Of a stretch of DNA of 64,000 nucleotides, positions 45,029-54,411 are shown one piece after another. Position 1 is the stretch's first letter; every line of letters starts with the position of its first letter. Source of the DNA: Dehalococcoidia bacterium (GTDB lineage: Bacteria; Chloroflexota; Dehalococcoidia; Bin125); the NCBI GenBank assembly GCA_963663185.1, contig OY760135.1, positions 530,044 through 594,043 of the forward strand, read 5' to 3'. The position numbers and the translations under genes were made by a program. The notes below the pieces were generated by a model that was not told where the DNA came from, searched no databases, and saw nothing but the letters and a program-made list of their open reading frames with translations.

Positions 45029-45649
45029 ATGTTCACAGGCATCATTGAGGAAGTCGGCGAGATCGCTGAAGCCGATGCGGGCCTGCTGCGCATCGCCGCG
45101 CCTCACATCCTCGTTGATGCCGGACTCGGCGACAGCATCGCCATCAACGGCGTCGACCTCACCGTGACGCATATCGAAGACGGCCAGTTCCTCGCCAATC
45201 TGATGCCGGAGACCTACCGACGCTCCAATCTTGGCAACCTGCAGGTCGGAGACCGCGTCAACCTGGAGCGCTCCGTGCGACCGATGGACCGACTCTCCGG
45301 ACACATCGTGCGCGGCGTGGTTGAAGGACGCGGCGCCTTCCGCAGCTCGCGAGCGGAAGCCGATGCGATCGTCGTGTACTACGACGCGCCTGCGGATCTG
45401 CTGAGCCACATGATCGTCAAAGGGCCCGTCTGCATCGACGGCGCCTCGCTGACCATCATCGACAAGGACGACGCCGGCTTCGCCGTCTCGCTCGTGCAAT
45501 ACACTCAGGAACACACCAACCTCCTGGACCGACAGCCGGGCGACGCGGTGAACCTGGAGACGGACATCCTCGCCCGATACATTGACGAGCTGCTCAGCGC
45601 CAAGATTGATCAGCTCCTGGACGAGCGATTGGGGGCACGCGATGCCTGA
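45029..45649 (+). CDS. ribE: Riboflavin synthase
   Basis: MFTGIIEE, GDSIAINGV, VNLER, GHIV.G, VNLETD. Confidence 0.96.
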   Translation: MFTGIIEEVGEIAEADAGLLRIAAPHILVDAGLGDSIAINGVDLTVTHIEDGQFLANLMPETYRRSNLGNLQVGDRVNLERSVRPMDRLSGHIVRGVVEGRGAFRSSRAEADAIVVYYDAPADLLSHMIVKGPVCIDGASLTIIDKDDAGFAVSLVQYTQEHTNLLDRQPGDAVNLETDILARYIDELLSAKIDQLLDERLGARDA

Positions 45650-46994
45650 GGAATCCACTGAGACGACAGCCAAGCCGCGGCGAGCTCGCCGCCGCACGAC
45701 TCAGAATCCACAGTCCCGTCGATCGCCATTCTGCAGCGTCGAAGAAGCGATCGAAGCCTTCGCCAACGGCGAACCACTGATCATCACTGATGACGAAGAC
45801 CGCGAGAATGAGGGCGATCTCGCCCTGCCAGCTCAGTTCGTCACCTCCGAGACGATCAACTTCATGGCTACCCATGGCCGCGGGCTCATCTGCATCGCCA
45901 TGGACGGCAGCCGACTCGACCGACTCGGTCTGCGCCTGATGGTCGATCAAGGTTCCAACACCGCTCCGCTCGGCACCGCATTTACCGTCTCGGTCGAGGC
46001 TCGCTCCGGCGTCAGCACCGGCATCTCCGCGCCTGACCGCGCCCGCACCGTCCAGGTGCTCATGGACCCCAATGCCACTTCGGACGATCTCGTCCGACCC
46101 GGGCACATGTTCCCGTTGCGTGCGCGCGACGGCGGCGTGCTCGTCCGCGCCGGTCAGACGGAAGCCTCCGTTGACCTCTGTCGCCTCGCCGGACTACAGC
46201 CCGGCGCCGTGATCTGCGAGGTCATGAAGCGCGACGGCGACATGGCCCGCCTGCCCGACCTGATTCGCTTCGCCAAGCGACACAGCCTCAAAATCGTCTC
46301 CGTCGAGCAGATCATTCAATACCGACTGCGCACCGAGCAGCTCGTCGAGCGGGTCTCGGAGGCCAAGCTGCCCACCCCAATGGGTACCTGGCGACTGATC
46401 GGCTTCCGCACCAAGGACAAGTCTGAAGAGCACGTCGCCCTGGTCATGGGCAACGTCGGCGGCGACGAAGCCACTCTCGTTCGCGTCCATTCACAATGTC
46501 TGACCGGCGATGTCTTTCAATCACAACGCTGCGACTGCGGTGAACAGCTCGACATCGCGATGCGACGCGTCGCTGAAGAGCGGCGCGGCGTGATCGTCTA
46601 TATGGCGCAGGAAGGTCGCGGAATCGGTCTGCACAACAAGATCGCCGCCTACGCGCTTCAGGATCAAGGCATGGACACGGTCGAAGCAAACCTCGCGCTC
46701 GGTTTCGCAGCCGACCGCCGAGACTACGGCATCGGCATGCAGATTCTGCGCGACCTCGGCATCAGCCGCATCCGACTCATGACCAATAACCCCTCCAAGC
46801 GGCACGGTCTCGCCGGTTACGGCCTCGAGATCGTCGAACGTGTCCCGGTGATCGCTTCGACCAACCCGCACAACGTCCGCTATCTCTCGATCAAGCAGGA
46901 GAAGATGGGCCACCTACTCGACTCCGACGCGATCGATGCGACCGATCCGATCGATGACGGCCAGCCACCCAAGCGCCGCGCCGCCATCGGCTAG
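45642..46994 (+). CDS. ribBA: DHBP synthase / GTP cyclohydrolase II
   Basis: DDEDRENEGD, RPGHMFPL, RVHSQCLTGD, RCDCGEQL, QEGRGIGL. Confidence 0.97.
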   Translation: MPEESTETTAKPRRARRRTTQNPQSRRSPFCSVEEAIEAFANGEPLIITDDEDRENEGDLALPAQFVTSETINFMATHGRGLICIAMDGSRLDRLGLRLMVDQGSNTAPLGTAFTVSVEARSGVSTGISAPDRARTVQVLMDPNATSDDLVRPGHMFPLRARDGGVLVRAGQTEASVDLCRLAGLQPGAVICEVMKRDGDMARLPDLIRFAKRHSLKIVSVEQIIQYRLRTEQLVERVSEAKLPTPMGTWRLIGFRTKDKSEEHVALVMGNVGGDEATLVRVHSQCLTGDVFQSQRCDCGEQLDIAMRRVAEERRGVIVYMAQEGRGIGLHNKIAAYALQDQGMDTVEANLALGFAADRRDYGIGMQILRDLGISRIRLMTNNPSKRHGLAGYGLEIVERVPVIASTNPHNVRYLSIKQEKMGHLLDSDAIDATDPIDDGQPPKRRAAIG

Positions 46995-47070
46995 TTGAAA
47001 CCGCCCAAGACCGCCCAAGACCGCACAGAGACCCGCAGAGACAACACAGAGACAGAGAACCGGCTGCAAG

Positions 47071-47559
47071 ATGGCCAATGTCCACGACGGCGCCGCCAAC
47101 CCGAATCCAGAGCTCGGACCCGCCAGCGGCCTCCGCTTCGCCGTCATCGTGAGCCGATTTAACGACTTTGTCACCGCCAAGCTGCTGGACGGTTGCATCG
47201 ACCACCTCGAGGCGAACGGCGCCGACTCAGACCAGATCGACATCTACTGGGTACCAGGCGCCTTCGAGATTCCGATCGCCGCCCAACGCTGCGCGCGAAC
47301 CGGTCGCTTCGACGCGGTGATCTGCCTCGGCGCGGTGATCGAGGGTGAGACGGACCATTATCGGCTCGTGGTTGACGGCGCGATGCAGGGCATCGCCCGA
47401 GTCGGCCTGGACACTGGCGTCCCTGTCATCTTCGAAGTGTTGGCGACCTCATCGGTGGGACTCGCAGTCGCGAGAGCCGGCGGGTCAGCCGGCAACAAGG
47501 GCGAAGAAGCCGCCCAAGCCGCCATCGAGATCTCCCGCCTCCTCCAGGCCATCGACTAG
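47071..47559 (+). CDS. ribH: 6,7-dimethyl-8-ribityllumazine synthase
   Basis: SRFN, VPGAFEIP, LGAVIEGETDH, GNKG.EAA. Confidence 0.96.
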   Translation: MANVHDGAANPNPELGPASGLRFAVIVSRFNDFVTAKLLDGCIDHLEANGADSDQIDIYWVPGAFEIPIAAQRCARTGRFDAVICLGAVIEGETDHYRLVVDGAMQGIARVGLDTGVPVIFEVLATSSVGLAVARAGGSAGNKGEEAAQAAIEISRLLQAID

Positions 47560-47664: not shown

Positions 47665-47848
47665 GGGGGATAAGGATGCGCTTGGCCCGGGCCTCTGCGC
47701 AAAGCCGAGGCGATCCTGCTAGTACGGTCCGCGACTTCGACCAACCAGCCAGGCGCCAAGCTGCGCACGGCTCGTAACGGTTTGCGCTCGTCGGCATCTC
47801 TCGAACTCGTTGCGACGACCTGCCAGCTATCGGCCATTGATCCGCCCG

Positions 47849-48937
47849 TCATCCGAATGTGTTGGACCGGCTGCGGAAGTTGTCGATGCCCAGACTGTCC
47901 CGCCACTTCTCCGACTCTCGACGCGAGAAGGAATCCAGCGGAATGCCGCAGCCGTCGGCGATCCTGACCATGCGCTGGAAATTGGCGATCGTGGCCGCGC
48001 AGTCCACGACGGCGTCGGCGCCCATCGCGTTGTTCAACGCTGCCCGAGCTGACGCAAGGTCGTCGCTGCGACCAACAGACGCGTTGCAGTATCGGAGCAG
48101 CATCTCGCCATACTCAACGCCGCTATCGACCTCGTTGCGAACCGTGCCATCCAGATTGAGCGCGGCGTTGCCTTCGCTGCTCCGACCGAGCAGCATCACG
48201 TGTGAAATCGTTCAATAGAAGCACTCGTTGAGAGCTGACACTCTGGCCGCGACCAACTCGCGCTGCGGGCGGGTCAGCACGCGGAACGACTCTTGCTCGC
48301 CGCCGATCTCGACCCAGCTCAAATAGTGCGCGTCGAACAGATCGCTGAGCCAGCGCACGCTGTCGGGGTGCAGACTCATCGCCTCGCGCACGTTGGCCGC
48401 CCCAGACTGACCGTCGTAGATGTCCGCCTCCGACTCGGCCAGATCCTCAGCAGCGAGCGTCGGCGGCCAACTGCCGTGATCGGCGAGACCGACAGGTCGG
48501 CGTTGCGTCGGCGCGCCCGCGATTGGGTCGGGCAGCGGCTCCAGCTCCAGGCTGAGCGCGCGATGAAACTCGTCCACCGACCAGATGTGCGCCACGACGC
48601 CCAACAGCTCGATGTAGCGCGCGTCGGACATTCCCTCTGCCCGGATCGTCTGCTCGTACCAGTCACGTGAGACGTTGGGCAGATCGCCGACCAGTTTGTG
48701 TACGGCGAAGGTCGCCGCCTCTGGCAGGCTGACCGGGCCTGGGCCAGGATCAGGCGAGCCGTCAACGAGCGCCGAGGCGCGTCGACTCTCCGCGGCGATG
48801 CTGATCCGCTCCGCGCCGCTCCACCATTCGCCAGGCGCGGCCAGACGCTCCCAGCTGCGGATGTGAGCCTCCCGAATGCGCTCAAGGATCGGCCAGTTCG
48901 CCTGGCGATAGGCGAATGGTGCGGTGGTGGTGGTCAT
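47849..48937 (-). CDS. AhpD/CMD-like alkylhydroperoxidase-related selenoprotein A (in-frame UGA at 48214-48212)
   Basis: ORFs 48212-48949 and 47849-48199 share a frame; read-through gives ELVAARVSALNECFY-U-TISH (CxxUxxxH); SECIS-like hairpin follows. Confidence 0.85.
48176..48194 (-). promoter_or_regulatory. Candidate bacterial SECIS element A
   Basis: GCUGCUC-GGUCG-GAGCAGC; loop begins 24 nt after UGA, G first in loop. Confidence 0.75.
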
Positions 48938-48985
48938 GTCCGACTCCAATGCTTTGGCCCGGTTGGGGGGTTAGGGACGCTCGAT

Positions 48986-50044
48986 CTAGACCGTGTTCGC
49001 AGCTGAGGCAAACTCGTGCAAACCCAGTTCTTCGCGCCAGTCTTCGCTGGCTCGCTTCGTGAAATCATCCAGCGGGATTCCGCAGCCGTCCGCGATCCTG
49101 ACCATGCGCTGGAAGTTGGCTACGACGCCGGCAGCGTCGACCAGTTGCTGCGCGCCCAACTCGTCCTGGATCTGTTCACGCAATCCAGCGAGCGCGTCGG
49201 TTTGCCGGACGGCTGCTTCCGCGAATGCGGTCAGTAAGCCGCCATGCGGGACGCCGCTGTCCGACTCGGGATTGACCGCGCCGTGCATGTCGAGGCTGTC
49301 GAGCGTGCCGTTTTGATCGCTGCTCTCACGGAGCATGCGCACGTGCGACGTCGTTCAATAGAAGCACTCGTTGAGCACCGAAACGCGCGCCGCGATCAGC
49401 TCGATCTGCGGTCGTGAAATCGCACGCAGCGGATCGGGCATACGCATCTCCGCGAAGGAGAGATAGTGACCCTCAGAGAGGTCGTGGAGCCAGCGCACGT
49501 TTTCAGGAATCAGCGAGAGCGCCGAAATGACATTGGCGCCCCACTCCAACGGACCGTAGAACTTCGCGTCGCCTGGCTGGAGACCATCACGCGGCACGAT
49601 CGGCGGCCAGGAGTCACGCTGCTCCGCCTTGGCCGGACGCTGACCGGTCGGCTCGCCGGGCAGCGGCAAGGGCAGCGGTTCCAGATCGAGGCCGAGCGCA
49701 CGGTGAAACTCGTCGATCGACAGTGCATGTACGACCACCGCGACCAGCTCGACGTAGCGATCTTCCGACAGGCCGTCAGCGGCGATCACGTCCTCATACC
49801 ACTCGCGATTCAGGTTGGCGTTGTCGACGACCAGCTTCTGAATCGCGTAGACGGCTGACTTGGGCAGGATATCGCTGCCAACCGCCTCGAACGATCGCGC
49901 GGCGCGTCCAACCCTGGCAATCTCAATTCGCTCCTGACCGTTCCACCAGCGACCGGCTCGCGCGATCCGATCCCAGCTGTCGCGGTGCGACGAGATAGTG
50001 GCTGCGCGAATCGGCAAGTCCGTATGCACGTACTCAAATGCCAT
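48986..50044 (-). CDS. AhpD/CMD-like alkylhydroperoxidase-related selenoprotein B (in-frame UGA at 49357-49355)
   Basis: ORFs 49355-50053 and 48986-49342 share a frame; ELIAARVSVLNECFY-U-TTSH. Confidence 0.85.
49318..49339 (-). promoter_or_regulatory. Candidate bacterial SECIS element B
   Basis: CGC-A-UGCUC-CGUGA-GAGCA-GCG; loop begins 24 nt after UGA, G second in loop. Confidence 0.7.
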
Positions 50045-50137
50045 GACGACCACTCCTGTGCTTCACTGTGTTTCAACACCGACCTGCACACGGTCAGCCC
50101 GAATTGAGAGTAGCTGCTCGCGACCCCGTTGGCCCCA

Positions 50138-50974
50138 TCAGCGCGGCGCGTCCGCAGACAGATTCGAGATCGCCGCCAGCTTCCACTCGCCCTCGCGGCG
50201 CACGGCCAGCACAATGGCGTGGCCGGCTTGACCGCCATAATCGACATCGATCGCGACGTTGGCGCCCAACGCGCCGCAGTTGACGATCCTCGCCGAACCG
50301 GCAATCGCGCCGCCGCCCGCCGGCGGACGCATGGTCTCCAGGAACTCGTCCCGCGACTCTGCCCGCGTCAGCTCTCCCACGCCGACCACGGTGTACGGAA
50401 ACACGTGCATCCGCGACCAGGCATCCCAGTCGCCGGCATTGAGCAGCGACATCGAACGCTCGGCGGCCTCCAGCGCGCCTGCCGCCGACGCCGAAGTGTC
50501 AGCACCGCGTGACCAGCTGTCGACCCCGAACCTCGCCTGAATCCCCCATCCCTCAGCTGTGCGAGTCATCACGTACAGCACCCGATTCGACACAATCTCC
50601 GAGTCGTCCGCGCGATGCCGTGTCCAACCCCCGGCTAGATGCGCCTTGTTTGCCGCCCTGCCTGCCGCCTTGTCTGCCGACTTGCCTGCCGACCAGTGCG
50701 CCAATCGCGGCGTAATCCCTTGCGTCCGCACCCAACCTGTCGCTTCAAATCGCTCCCAGCCGGCCTCGGTCGCGCCTGCGGCATAGTCGGCCGCAGTCGG
50801 ATAGACCCGTGACGCCGTGCGCGGATCGATTTGACCGCGTTCACCCGACGCGATCGCCGCCGAGACGCGCACGTGCGGATACGACATCGCGCCCGCCCAG
50901 CCTGCGGCGTCCCTGGCGTTGAAGCGTTCGAAGAACGACCAGTATGCATCGCTCGGCTGTTGATGAGCACCCAT
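50138..50974 (-). CDS. Hypothetical protein with two NTF2/SnoaL-like halves
   Basis: FNARDAAGW...YPHVRV repeated as LNAGDWDAW...FPYTVV. Confidence 0.6.
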   Translation of the reverse strand: MGAHQQPSDAYWSFFERFNARDAAGWAGAMSYPHVRVSAAIASGERGQIDPRTASRVYPTAADYAAGATEAGWERFEATGWVRTQGITPRLAHWSAGKSADKAAGRAANKAHLAGGWTRHRADDSEIVSNRVLYVMTRTAEGWGIQARFGVDSWSRGADTSASAAGALEAAERSMSLLNAGDWDAWSRMHVFPYTVVGVGELTRAESRDEFLETMRPPAGGGAIAGSARIVNCGALGANVAIDVDYGGQAGHAIVLAVRREGEWKLAAISNLSADAPR

Positions 50975-51257: not shown

Positions 51258-51860
51258 TTATTCAGCCCACTGACCGTAGTTCTCGTGCCCAAGCGCATTG
51301 CCGTCTGGGTCGAGCAACGGATCGACTGCTGGCAACGTCTGGAGCCAGGCCCAGATGTCGGCGACTGCTTCGACTGGCACATCGTCCGGATCCTGCTCAA
51401 GCATGACGCCGCGCGGCTGTCGGTACTGGGAGATCACTTCCTGGATCGTGAGTCCAGTGCGGGCGATGGTGGGTCCAACGATGCCTTCGCCGGTCTCTCC
51501 ATGACAGACCTGACAGCCATTGGCCACGTAGAGTTCGGCGCCGCGAGTGGGATTCGCCTCAGCGCGCACCGCCTCTTCGTCAATGACTTCAATCGGCAGC
51601 GGCTCCGCCTCTGCGCAGGTCTCCGGCGGTCGTTCGGTCAGCGAGAGCGAGGGATGGTCTTCCTTGCCGTCCTCAATGCAGAACAAACCGGTTTCCCAGC
51701 CTTCGGCGCCGGCAATCTCCGACAGCGCCGCCGCTTCAACGACGTTGCGGTCCGCACCCTTATGGATCGCGAAACCGACCAACGTGAAGACGCCCGCCGC
51801 CAGCAGGGCGAACACCATGATAATTCCGAACGACTGCGGGATTCCACTGCGAGTCGGCAT
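51258..51860 (-). CDS. Membrane-anchored monoheme cytochrome c
   Basis: N-terminal TM helix, GAELY..NGCQVCHG..GEG.VGP, distal Met (PRGVM). Confidence 0.88.
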   Translation of the reverse strand: MPTRSGIPQSFGIIMVFALLAAGVFTLVGFAIHKGADRNVVEAAALSEIAGAEGWETGLFCIEDGKEDHPSLSLTERPPETCAEAEPLPIEVIDEEAVRAEANPTRGAELYVANGCQVCHGETGEGIVGPTIARTGLTIQEVISQYRQPRGVMLEQDPDDVPVEAVADIWAWLQTLPAVDPLLDPDGNALGHENYGQWAE

Positions 51861-51955: not shown

Positions 51956-52843
51956 TCAGCTGGACGGAGATGATGGCCGCGTCTTTGCGGCACCGTAATC
52001 CTGGAACGGGCCGTCGCGCCAGTCAAGAGCGGCCTTGAGCCCCTTTTCGCGCGCGATCCGCCCGAAGTCACCCGCCGATTTACGGAAGGTCGACAGCGCC
52101 TGCATGTCCGCTCCGACCTGCAACGCCGTGCGAAAGCCCATCACCTCGTAGGCGCGATTCAGGCCGCGTTTCGAGACCATCACCATGTCCGGCTCGATGT
52201 TGGCGATCCGTTCGCCGAATCGTTCCGTCTCTTCCGCCAACTGATCGACCGGGAAGGCGCGATTCGCCCAACCGAGCTCGACCGCTTCCTTACCCGTCAC
52301 CGAGTCGCCGGTGTAGAGCAGCTCGCGCGCCTTGCGCATGCCCATGTGCCAGGGGTGATAGAGGACATCCACCGTCGTCATCGCGCGCACCGGCGGATAG
52401 CCGATCACGGCGTCCTCGGCGACAAACATCAGGTCGCACATTGACGCCAGCTCGGAGCCGCCTGCCAGGCAGTAACCATGCACCTGCGCGATCACGGGCT
52501 TCGCCAATTCCCAGATCTGCCAGTAGCCCGACAGCAAGTGCTGCGGCCACTGACCCTGACCAGGATGGATCGGTCCGACCGACGGCAACCCGGAGCGATA
52601 GTCCAGGTAGTCCGAGTCTGACAGGTTCTGGACCGGCGTGATGTCGTAGCCAGCAGAGAACGTGCGCCCGGCGCCGCGAATGATCACCGCATGGACGGCG
52701 TCATCGGCCTCCGCCACCTTGAGCGCGTCAAACAGCTCCGCCCGCAGGCGATGGCTGAGCGCGTTCATCTTCTCTGGCCGATTCAGCGTCAAAATCGCCA
52801 GTCGACCCTTGTTCTCGTACAGGATGTCTTCGTACTCAGGCAC
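51956..52843 (-). CDS. Enoyl-CoA hydratase family protein
   Basis: LNRPEKMNAL, FSAGYD, KPVIAQVHGYCLAGGSEL. Confidence 0.92.
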   Translation of the reverse strand: MPEYEDILYENKGRLAILTLNRPEKMNALSHRLRAELFDALKVAEADDAVHAVIIRGAGRTFSAGYDITPVQNLSDSDYLDYRSGLPSVGPIHPGQGQWPQHLLSGYWQIWELAKPVIAQVHGYCLAGGSELASMCDLMFVAEDAVIGYPPVRAMTTVDVLYHPWHMGMRKARELLYTGDSVTGKEAVELGWANRAFPVDQLAEETERFGERIANIEPDMVMVSKRGLNRAYEVMGFRTALQVGADMQALSTFRKSAGDFGRIAREKGLKAALDWRDGPFQDYGAAKTRPSSPSS

Positions 52844-52885: not shown

Positions 52886-53878
52886 CTATTGCGTGGAACG
52901 ACGCGCCGACTCAATCGCGCGACGAATCTGCGATAGCGGCGCCGCGCCGCGCACGACCCCGCGGTAGACGCCGTCCGAATCGATCAAGAACATCTCAGGC
53001 AAACCGTCCACGCGATAGTGCCGCGCGACCTCGCCGCTGCTGTCGGCCAGATGGAGCAGGTCGTAGTTGACCTCTTCCAGCAACCGCTCGGCGGCGCTGA
53101 GCTGATGCTGGTACACATTGATCCCGACGACATTGATCCCGTCCTCCAGAGCTATCCGCCCGAGCGCGTTCAGCGTGTCTGCGGCCAACGGCGCCCAGGA
53201 CGACCAGAAGACCAACAGTGTCACCCCCCGGTTACTTTCCTGGTGACTCGCTCGCGTTTCCGAGAGCGTCAGCATCCGCGTGTCGTCGCCCAGTACGGAC
53301 AGACGGAAATCCGGCGCCTCCTCACCGCGCTCCAGGCGTGGCGTGTTGCGCTCCAGGCCGATCCCGGACCACAACTCCTCGCCGGTGCGCAGATTGAGTC
53401 GCAGCGGCAGGCTGAACTCCCACGCGCTCAACAGCGCGCCTTCCCAACTGAGCCGCCAATCGTCTTGCCTGATCCGCTGTTCATCTCCGTCCTCGCCGTG
53501 GCGCAAGACCAACTCGAACTCGATCCATTCTGAGAGCTTGCGCGCGCGAATCCAGGCGGTCAGATCAGCCGTGATTTGCATCTCGCTCGTGCGCATCCAG
53601 CTGCGCTCCCGCGCGGCTTCGTAGTCAAAGCGCCGTCGCTCCGGACAGTGCCGCCGCGCTGTCGATTCGTCCACCCGCACGTACAGGCACAGCGAGACGC
53701 GACCGGTCGCCGACTTCCACGTCATGACGCGAATGGTCCCCAGCTCCGCTGCGTCGGAGGCATTGGCCGATTCGTCCCGGTCGTTGGACCCATCGCTCTG
53801 CGCATCAAGCGCCACCGTGCCCAGCCACAGCACTGAGATCAGAGCCAGCAGGCTGACTGCCAAACGTACCGTTCGCAT
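52886..53878 (-). CDS. Exported TlpA/redoxin-fold protein lacking the CxxC motif
   Basis: Signal peptide; GEEAPDFRL, LLVFWSSWAPLA, VVGINV, YRVDGLPEMFLIDSDG. Confidence 0.75.
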   Translation of the reverse strand: MRTVRLAVSLLALISVLWLGTVALDAQSDGSNDRDESANASDAAELGTIRVMTWKSATGRVSLCLYVRVDESTARRHCPERRRFDYEAARERSWMRTSEMQITADLTAWIRARKLSEWIEFELVLRHGEDGDEQRIRQDDWRLSWEGALLSAWEFSLPLRLNLRTGEELWSGIGLERNTPRLERGEEAPDFRLSVLGDDTRMLTLSETRASHQESNRGVTLLVFWSSWAPLAADTLNALGRIALEDGINVVGINVYQHQLSAAERLLEEVNYDLLHLADSSGEVARHYRVDGLPEMFLIDSDGVYRGVVRGAAPLSQIRRAIESARRSTQ

Positions 53879-54411
53879 TACGACTCCATCATCGAAAAGT
53901 TGTGATTACCGAGAAACGCTCCCGCGCCGGCGACCGCCAGCGTCGCCAACAGTCCCAGCACCGAGAGCGCGATCGTGATTTGCCGTACGCGACGCAACTC
54001 GGCTGAGTCCTCCTCCGCCGTTGCGGACTCACGCGCCAACTGCAGCTGACGCGGACCGAACACGAACTGATGCAATCCGATCAGCGCGATCATCGCTGCC
54101 CAGAGCCCCATCTTGACCACGAAGATGTAACCCCAACGCGCGTCGTAGATGTCGGGGCCGAAGTTCTCCGCCTGATCGAGGCGCGGATCGACCATCAGCC
54201 CGCCCGTGATCACGATGATCACCATGGCCGCAATGCCCACGCGTCCGAAGCGCTGCGTAAAGCCCTCCAACGCCGTCAGCCAGAGCGTACGGTCGCCCAC
54301 GGCCCGCAAGGCCGGAATGACGCAGGCGGCGGTCACGATCTGTCCGCCCAACCACACCGCGACGCCGATCACATGCAGCGTCACCAGAATCGAGATCACC
54401 GTTTCCGACAT
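53878..54411 (-). CDS. CopD-like membrane protein
   Basis: LHVIGVAVWLGG, ITGG, VKMGL...LH; 4 TM. Confidence 0.7.
   Translation of the reverse strand: MSETVISILVTLHVIGVAVWLGGQIVTAACVIPALRAVGDRTLWLTALEGFTQRFGRVGIAAMVIIVITGGLMVDPRLDQAENFGPDIYDARWGYIFVVKMGLWAAMIALIGLHQFVFGPRQLQLARESATAEEDSAELRRVRQITIALSVLGLLATLAVAGAGAFLGNHNFSMMES

Follow-up and report, generated by a model that had tools for sequence, protein, structure and literature searches.

AhpD-like proteins with a CxxU redox motif, in which U is selenocysteine (Sec), are counted in the published excerpts that concern them among the commonest marine selenoproteins. One family of this kind goes back to the Sargasso Sea selenoproteome of 2005, where "hypothetical protein 1" comprised four sequences with a conserved CXXU motif and where, in the passages that describe them, the new selenoproteins were reported with stem-loops after the UGA and with cysteine (Cys) homologues (Zhang, Fomenko and Gladyshev, 2005; PMC1088965). 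A passage of a 2026 review (PMC13188914) equates this protein with the family NF041238 ("AhpD_rel_CFYUT"). The hidden Markov model (HMM) of that family is an equivalog model of 357 positions with a cut-off of 175 bits. The DNA analysed here, a window of 64,000 nucleotides (nt) with a guanine-plus-cytosine (GC) content of 65%, comes from the single-contig genome (3.28 Mb) of a sponge-associated Dehalococcoidia bacterium, and four apparent open reading frames (ORFs) on its minus strand are confirmed here as two neighbouring genes, A and B, for Sec-containing proteins of the AhpD-related redox type.

Both genes resemble NF041238 and hypothetical protein 1 in the CFY-U-T motif, which is identical, in belonging to the CxxU type and in their length of about 350-360 amino acids (aa). 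They differ from the family at large in that two copies stand in tandem here, both as Sec forms, and in that a CxxC motif of the N-terminal domain, found in 67 of 102 family representatives, is absent from A and B alike. As the family, together with its Sec codon, motif and selenocysteine insertion sequence (SECIS), has been predicted in print since 2005 and has been curated, the selenoprotein reading is right, but it is not new. The initial annotation of this stretch had overlooked that NF041238, named after the CFYUT motif, already covers exactly this family. The genus, or the tandem pair itself, might already be listed among the members in the 2005 and 2008 papers or in BSepDB. We put at roughly 0.93 the probability that A and B, both intact and duplicated in tandem, are NF041238 selenoprotein genes in a host with a full Sec-insertion system; of this reading it is demonstrated that the genes are intact, that the UGA is conserved and the hairpin RNA constrained, that the host has the Sec machinery, and that the proteins belong to the family and have its fold. 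The features concerned are the following.

47849-48937, minus strand: gene A (coding sequence 48937-47852, terminal TGA stop 47851-47849); read-through product of 362 aa, Sec at residue 242, NF041238
48986-50044, minus strand: gene B (coding sequence 50044-48989, TAG stop 48988-48986); read-through product of 352 aa, Sec at residue 230, NF041238
48214-48212, minus strand: Sec codon (UGA) of gene A, within C-F-Y-U-T-I-S-H; TGA invariant at aligned sites
49357-49355, minus strand: Sec codon (UGA) of gene B, within C227-F-Y-U230-T-T-S-H234; TGA invariant at aligned sites
48194-48176, minus strand: SECIS-like hairpin of gene A, GCUGCUC / loop GGUCG / GAGCAGC; from fold, pair counts and synonymous-site entropy
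49339-49318, minus strand: SECIS-like hairpin of gene B, CGC(A)UGCUC / loop CGUGA / GAGCAGCG; from fold, stem conservation and frozen synonymous sites

An in-frame UGA at an invariant site

In the list of ORFs gene A appears as the pair 48212-48949 (245 aa) and 47849-48199 (116 aa), and gene B as the pair 49355-50053 (232 aa) and 48986-49342 (118 aa), all on the minus strand. When TGA is read as U each pair becomes one unbroken frame (...LNECFY-U-TISHVM... in A and ...LNECFY-U-TTSHVRM... in B), as the initial annotation had proposed, and the products are of the 362 and 352 aa it had given when counted from the ATG. The motif that it read across the UGA, C-F-Y-U-T-x-S-H with U replacing the second Cys of a CxxC...H site, is upheld by alignment with solved AhpD-like proteins: LNECFY(U)TTSH is matched to LNRCVYCAVSH of the Deinococcus radiodurans AhpD (6k40) and to INGCAYCVNMH of chains 2ijc and 2o4d. 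Near the C terminus, ahead of a short tail, A and B also have in common the motif ANFQRMVRIADGCGIPLD to which attention had been drawn earlier.

Against the NF041238 HMM gene A scores 335.8 bits over model positions 3-357 and gene B 358.4 bits over positions 1-357, about twice the cut-off in each case, and a six-frame search of the genome returned these two copies only (326.2 and 344.2 bits, one TGA each). The Pfam family PF02627 (CMD) is matched marginally, over the 28-34 residues around the motif, with 24.0 bits for A and 29.0 bits for B against a gathering threshold of 23.

A further six-frame search covered 61 genomes, among them 36 other genomes of the genus and further genomes of the class, and matches above the NF041238 cut-off were counted in 36 of the 61. 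All 36 other genomes of the genus have a match, mostly as adjacent pairs and as full-length rows with a single TGA, so that the tandem duplication, evident here from the adjacency of A and B, extends to other genomes of the genus much as it had been described for this one. Outside the genus, a genome from another family of the class (G045) has a homologue of 452.5 bits, also with one TGA; nothing above the cut-off came from the other 23 genomes of the class in this search. As the scores of A and B (326-358 bits) are lower than that of the G045 homologue, their clade is a diverged branch of NF041238. Relatives found with a single protein were of the same genus only, and were named Dehalococcoidia or Chloroflexota metagenome-assembled genomes (MAGs).

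The codon itself was followed in 54-nt sites taken from fetched loci and starting at the Sec/Cys column, with a pattern that permitted either Cys or a stop; the set consists of UGA-form loci of the same genus, with identical copies and sites cut by the end of a locus dropped. TGA opens all 60 distinct sites, in frame, and neither TAA nor TAG is ever found in its place, which answers one of the checks that the initial annotation had proposed. Downstream of the TGA the sequence evolves as coding sequence. In the B clade (22 sequences) the mean differences between pairs of sequences, for the first, second and third codon position in turn, are 0.105, 0.078 and 0.364 downstream, compared with 0.13, 0.073 and 0.404 upstream; in the A clade (12 sequences) they are 0.183, 0.151 and 0.459 downstream and 0.182, 0.134 and 0.451 upstream. 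Beyond the TGA, differences at third positions are thus three to five times as frequent as at the other two, which is the pattern upstream as well, and there are no extra stops downstream in either clade. Since this codon-position pattern is kept and no further stop intervenes, the small downstream ORFs are translated in frame as parts of the same protein.

These results bear directly on the possibility that the UGA codons are true stops, in which case there would be four independent genes at the locus, or a pair of genes that had each decayed into pseudogene halves. Gene callers do report the split, most of the database homologues are 229-aa proteins which cover 65% of the query, the downstream pieces of three homologues stand as separate entries (P0152, P0161 and P0217), and other genes of the window do end in TGA. 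Against this, however, all 60 distinct sites, drawn from two paralogue clades which split before the genus radiated, have one TGA in the same column, and beyond it frame, length and codon-position pattern are retained with no additional stops. Furthermore, the C-terminal piece completes an AhpD-like domain in a model with a predicted local distance difference test score (pLDDT) of 96.1, and full-length Cys versions exist. True stops are therefore exceedingly improbable. The prevalence of 229-aa products also bears out the earlier expectation that standard callers would split such genes.

The full-length Cys versions were found among homologues detected by a HMMER scan of 1.84 billion representatives, which gave 1582 hits; the counts that follow rest on the 150 of them that were listed. 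Ninety-four terminate precisely at C-x-Y, gene callers having truncated them at the stop, and 26 continue across the site with C-x-[FYWH]-C-[TSA]-x-x-H, in most cases CFYC (P0076, for instance, reads CFYCT). The other 30 are irregular: three end at C-H/T/A-Y, and P0152, P0161 and P0217 are the downstream piece called as a gene of its own. Twenty sequences, namely P0078 and 19 of the 30 irregular ones, were inspected and have Cys in eight cases, Ser in two, Leu in one and Val in one, with eight giving no match to the pattern. The question whether homologues have Cys at the aligned column, raised together with the first reading, can thus be answered with 26 of the 150 by the strict motif and a further eight irregular ones.

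Some of the exceptions deserve mention in their own right. P0078, a full-length protein from a Pseudomonadota MAG which NCBI names alkylhydroperoxidase-related (seleno)protein, reads CFY-V-TSSH, with Val at the Sec/Cys position; it may be a redox-dead variant or an artefact of the way in which U is stored. The pair of redox positions reads S..L in P0189 and C..S in P0184 and P0218.

A hairpin over coding sequence and the machinery to use it

In each gene a hairpin follows the UGA, with 24 nt separating that codon from the first loop base. This spacing had been stated in the initial annotation and is true of both hairpins by fold and by alignment. The stems had been said to differ, which is so for the outer pairs; the five apical pairs, UGCUC/GAGCA, are on the contrary common to A and B. 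The distance, and the G in the first loop positions, agree with the SECIS criteria of the bSECISearch description; across the 60 sites the loop base G29 never varies, and U30 is kept in 59.

Evidence for constraint on the RNA comes from synonymous positions. At columns 24, 27, 30 and 33, the third positions of the four codons that form the apical stem and loop, the entropy is 0-0.12 bits, compared with 0.78-1.67 bits in the six codons before the hairpin and 0.96-1.9 bits in the five after the stem. All 60 sites write Leu as CTC, 59 of them have NGT for the Arg/Gly codon, and the codon that follows it ends in G in all 60 (CGG in 30 of 30 where it encodes Arg). Both Ser codons under the stem are AGY, whilst the Ser five codons earlier is written with all four TCN codons. 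Bases of the stem can pair in 84.8% of cells; with the partner columns shifted, the figure is 20.7-53.1%. The region of the hairpin resembles an RNA element overlaid on coding sequence.

The genome also has the means to decode such an element. A profile search of the genome identified selA (501.1 bits), selB (332 bits, or 355.1 bits with its in-frame neighbours) and, outside the window, selD (341.8 bits; locus L011, G000:C1:1770298-1771263, minus strand), and the tRNA-Sec encoded by selC was found with the Rfam model (68.5 bits) and called by ARAGORN as tRNA-SeC with the anticodon tca; each of the four is above its own curated cut-off. The selD gene has one in-frame TGA, in the context ...LARCGG-U-GSKYGP..., and is therefore itself a selenoprotein gene. 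The search for selA, selB, selC and selD had been suggested as a further check on the initial annotation, whose selenoprotein reading of A and B is strongly supported by these results. No other selenoprotein gene was found in the window by a crude scan for in-frame TGA in a redox context: there were 173 candidates, and the seven whose translation was followed past the TGA all continue as Arg/Ser-rich nonsense.

It might be argued instead that the UGA is read through without Sec, by a near-cognate tRNA (Trp, Cys or Arg) or under a reassigned code, to give a protein without selenium. Plain read-through alone would account for the coding constraint downstream, and Sec at this residue of A and B is a prediction. 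A global reassignment is contradicted by the ORFs for ribE, enoyl-CoA hydratase and a 278-aa protein (unk278) and by gene A itself, all of which end in TGA; as TGA is an ordinary stop elsewhere, the code has not been reassigned. Set against a near-cognate tRNA are the complete set of selA, selB, selC and selD, the canonical site at which selD uses UGA, the hairpin with frozen synonymous sites at SECIS distance and the presence in homologues of Cys, the usual partner of Sec, at this column. Read-through without Sec is thus highly improbable.

A double AhpD domain and its predicted chemistry

An AlphaFold2 model of the product of gene B, built with 51 sequences, has a pLDDT of 96.1 and a predicted template modelling (pTM) score of 0.94. 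Its best whole-length structural match is human Sestrin2 (5cuf_A; Z 17.2, root-mean-square deviation (rmsd) 3.2 over 240 residues, model range 1-324), while single-domain AhpD-like chains match the C-terminal half, residues 142-340, with Z 11.1-13.4, and Foldseek agrees (target template modelling (TM) score 0.73-0.75). When the N-terminal 145 residues were folded alone (pLDDT 91.2), the top eight matches were all members of the AhpD/CMD family or Sestrin2 (Z 9.1-4.7), unrelated chains reaching at most 4.6. From these structure searches, and not from profile comparison, the protein is taken to contain two AhpD-like domains; as modelled, the product is an all-helical, fused double AhpD domain. 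This explains a length that had been remarked upon as long for an AhpD protein, the second, N-terminal AhpD-like domain making up the difference. A comparison of the N-terminal with the C-terminal half by hhalign was not significant on its own (probability 6.5%, P 0.0056). In that comparison the CxxC of the N-terminal domain of the family is laid onto the CFYC motif of the C-terminal domain, which hints at an internal duplication, although the match lacks significance.

Three groups of described proteins can be compared with this architecture. The peroxidase-related AhpD proteins (6k40, 2oyo, 2prr, 2pfx and 3c1l; TIGR01926/COG2128) are homologous to the C-terminal half: 6k40 matches it with a profile expectation value (E) of 2.3e-21, the columns of the CxxC/U...H site correspond, and 2pfx_B reaches Z 13.4. 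They are, however, single-domain proteins of about 190 aa, whereas A and B carry the additional N-terminal AhpD-like domain. The AhpD of Mycobacterium tuberculosis (1gu9/1knc) has a similar fold (Z 7.0 with the whole model, 6.3 with the N-terminal domain alone) and the same C-x-x-C-x-x-x-H redox motif, with marginal sequence similarity (profile E 0.002); it is a 177-aa subunit, whereas A and B have two domains, are monomeric in design and have no adjacent ahpC. In the M. tuberculosis protein the second Cys, at the position of Sec in A and B, is the nucleophile that acts on oxidised AhpC, and the protein is coupled to lipoamide and DlaT.

Sestrin2 has two AhpD-like halves in one chain, as do A and B, and the link between them is one of fold only. 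Its redox Cys is in the N-terminal half, whilst the CxxU of A and B is in the C-terminal half; nothing suggests the GATOR2 and leucine functions of Sestrin2 for A and B, and the Sestrin family of Pfam (PA26) is not among the Pfam hits of either protein at E values up to 1. Bacterial Sestrin-like proteins of fused AhpD domains, such as YciW, are described in a passage of a 2024 review (PMC11429811), so that, as far as that passage goes, the architecture is not new either.

Taking these comparisons together with the established bacterial mechanism, we infer that A and B incorporate selenium, and a redox cycle, with its substrate and reductant, can be proposed by analogy. SelB with Sec-tRNA(Sec) would bind the hairpin 24 nt after the UGA, and the ribosome would insert Sec at residue 242 of A and residue 230 of B without termination. 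The products would be two cytoplasmic selenol/thiol oxidoreductases, each with a C-x-x-U-x-x-x-H site in an AhpD-like pocket of the C-terminal domain. The selenolate might then attack an oxidised substrate, for example a hydroperoxide, the disulfide or sulfenate form of a peroxiredoxin, or some other electrophile. Sec and its resolving partner, the Cys at the third position before it, would next be joined in a selenenylsulfide, to be reduced again by a cellular dithiol reductant.

The chemistry of genuine selenoproteins could also be of a kind other than the reduction of peroxides or peroxiredoxins, for example the selenol-based reductive dehalogenation of halogenated metabolites, in which sponges are rich. 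There are parallels for this, as Bmp8 is a debrominase of the CMD family and deiodinases are Sec-dependent. Bmp8 (6ohi_A) ties for second-best structural match to the model (Z 13.4, rmsd 2.9, 178 residues) and is a weak profile match (E 0.014), the locus DNA is found in runs labelled sponge metagenome, and no ahpC adjoins the genes. However, Bmp8 matches no better than an ordinary peroxidase-related AhpD (2pfx_B, with the same Z), a shared fold with Bmp8 shows no function, by sequence the peroxidase-related AhpD proteins are far closer (E 2.3e-21 for 6k40), and the family occurs in other sources as well, with records from Pseudomonadota and Gammaproteobacteria. The evidence does not favour a dehalogenation role over an ordinary one in peroxide defence, and an alternative chemistry of this kind is considered very unlikely.

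A number of points weigh against the reading of A and B as selenoproteins of an AhpD-like peroxidase system. Selenium incorporation is a prediction for A and B and, to our knowledge, for every member of NF041238, and the 94 representatives which end at C-x-Y were compared as protein sequences only. The AhpD core model TIGR00778 scores 26.9 bits for A and 24.5 for B, just below its cut-off of 27.8, and the peroxidase-related model TIGR01926 is likewise below its cut-off (33.7 and 33.2 bits against 81.8); A and B are thus related to both families and members of neither. The neighbourhood contains no ahpC-type partner adjoining A or B, and the upstream neighbours vary among relatives, for which reasons a role in a peroxidase system is drawn only by analogy. 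As to the hairpins, the folding energy of 81-nt segments is no better than that of shuffled sequences (z 0.04 and 0.68), and stability in DNA of 65% GC was consequently not used as evidence. Covariation in the stem is weak: both sides change in only one of seven pairs (G-C to C-G, four cells), the covariation score was reached by 36 of 500 shuffles among sequences that are closely related, and a search of 47700-50200 with all Rfam families at E values up to 10 gave no SECIS family. Rfam matches to AS1726, mir-598 and sR53 over the same interval are at chance level and were rejected. Conservation of the stem could also be due in part to the conserved residues M/L-L-R/G-E/R-S-S which it encodes; the frozen third positions argue for more than conservation of amino acids.

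The paralogous pair, its neighbours and its significance

A quick maximum-likelihood tree of 69 rows, used only for the split between A and B, places all sequences of the genus in one clade (support 99), within which the copies of B (29 rows, support 96) and those of A (32 rows, support 99) each form a clade. The duplication therefore predates the genus, and both copies have kept Sec. Some genomes, G001, G005 and G035 among them, have three to five matches each. A third Sec clade reads ...U-TVSHVAALRRSS... (L033:2581-3702, L037:2581-3666 and L048:1480-2565), and G011, G028 and G032 contain fragmentary or doubly interrupted copies which look decayed.

Two sequence features of the pair lie outside the CxxU site. 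Most members of the family have a CxxCxxRKxxLSP...GxH block in the N-terminal domain, where A and B have a deletion of about 14 residues (at approximately 48-58 of gene B). The loss of the N-domain CxxC was considered as a trait special to this clade and rejected, since 35 of the 102 representatives also lack it and it is thus a common variant. In the segment IADG-C-GIPLD both A and B have Cys, which none of 24 full-length representatives has at this position (T in 20, S in two, I in one and A in one). This Cys is absent from the genus members L035 and L055, and is therefore unlikely to be essential.

The genes around the pair are as follows.

45029-47559, plus strand: riboflavin operon (lumazine-binding ribE, ribBA, ribH), convergent on gene A
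50138-50974, minus strand: 278-aa ORF (unk278), immediately upstream of gene B; assigned to no family of Pfam or NCBIfam
51258-51860, minus strand: cytochrome c, upstream of gene B
51956-52843, minus strand: enoyl-CoA hydratase, upstream of gene B
52886-53878, minus strand: DsbE/ResA-like thioredoxin-fold protein, four genes away and the nearest thioredoxin-fold gene
53878-54411, minus strand: CopD-like protein, upstream of gene B

The riboflavin operon is the sole conserved neighbour, ribH and ribBA being present in 13 of 14 related loci, whereas unk278 has no counterpart in those 14 loci and may be specific to the lineage or not a real gene. The cytochrome c, the thioredoxin-fold protein and the CopD-like protein look like a group for cytochrome maturation or copper handling and not like an AhpC partner. 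With a conserved riboflavin operon on one side and variable genes on the other, no functional link is drawn from the neighbourhood. The sequencing runs that contain DNA of the locus are labelled sponge metagenome, and no RNA run is among the matches listed.

A more speculative view is that A and B form a lineage-specific, sub-functionalised and possibly heteromeric module of two selenoenzymes in sponge-associated Dehalococcoidia, for selenol chemistry other than peroxide defence, such as the reductive dehalogenation of sponge organobromine compounds after the fashion of Bmp8 and the deiodinases; we consider this very unlikely. In such a module the N-domain CxxC would have been dropped and the Cys of IADG-C-GIPLD gained. 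The only hints towards it are the tie with the Bmp8 fold, the sponge-metagenome label and the conservation of the pair across the genus.

Read as two intact NF041238 selenoprotein genes, A and B establish no new category and settle no open question. What is added here is the fused double AhpD domain, the duplication that preceded the genus and the lack of the N-domain CxxC from both copies. Because callers split the genes and most homologues are recorded as 229-aa products, the selenoproteomes of Dehalococcoidia MAGs will be under-counted unless a model of the NF041238 type is applied. NF041238 is a widespread family of predicted selenoproteins, and a genus with two adjacent Sec paralogues and clean sets of orthologues offers a convenient system in which to study it.

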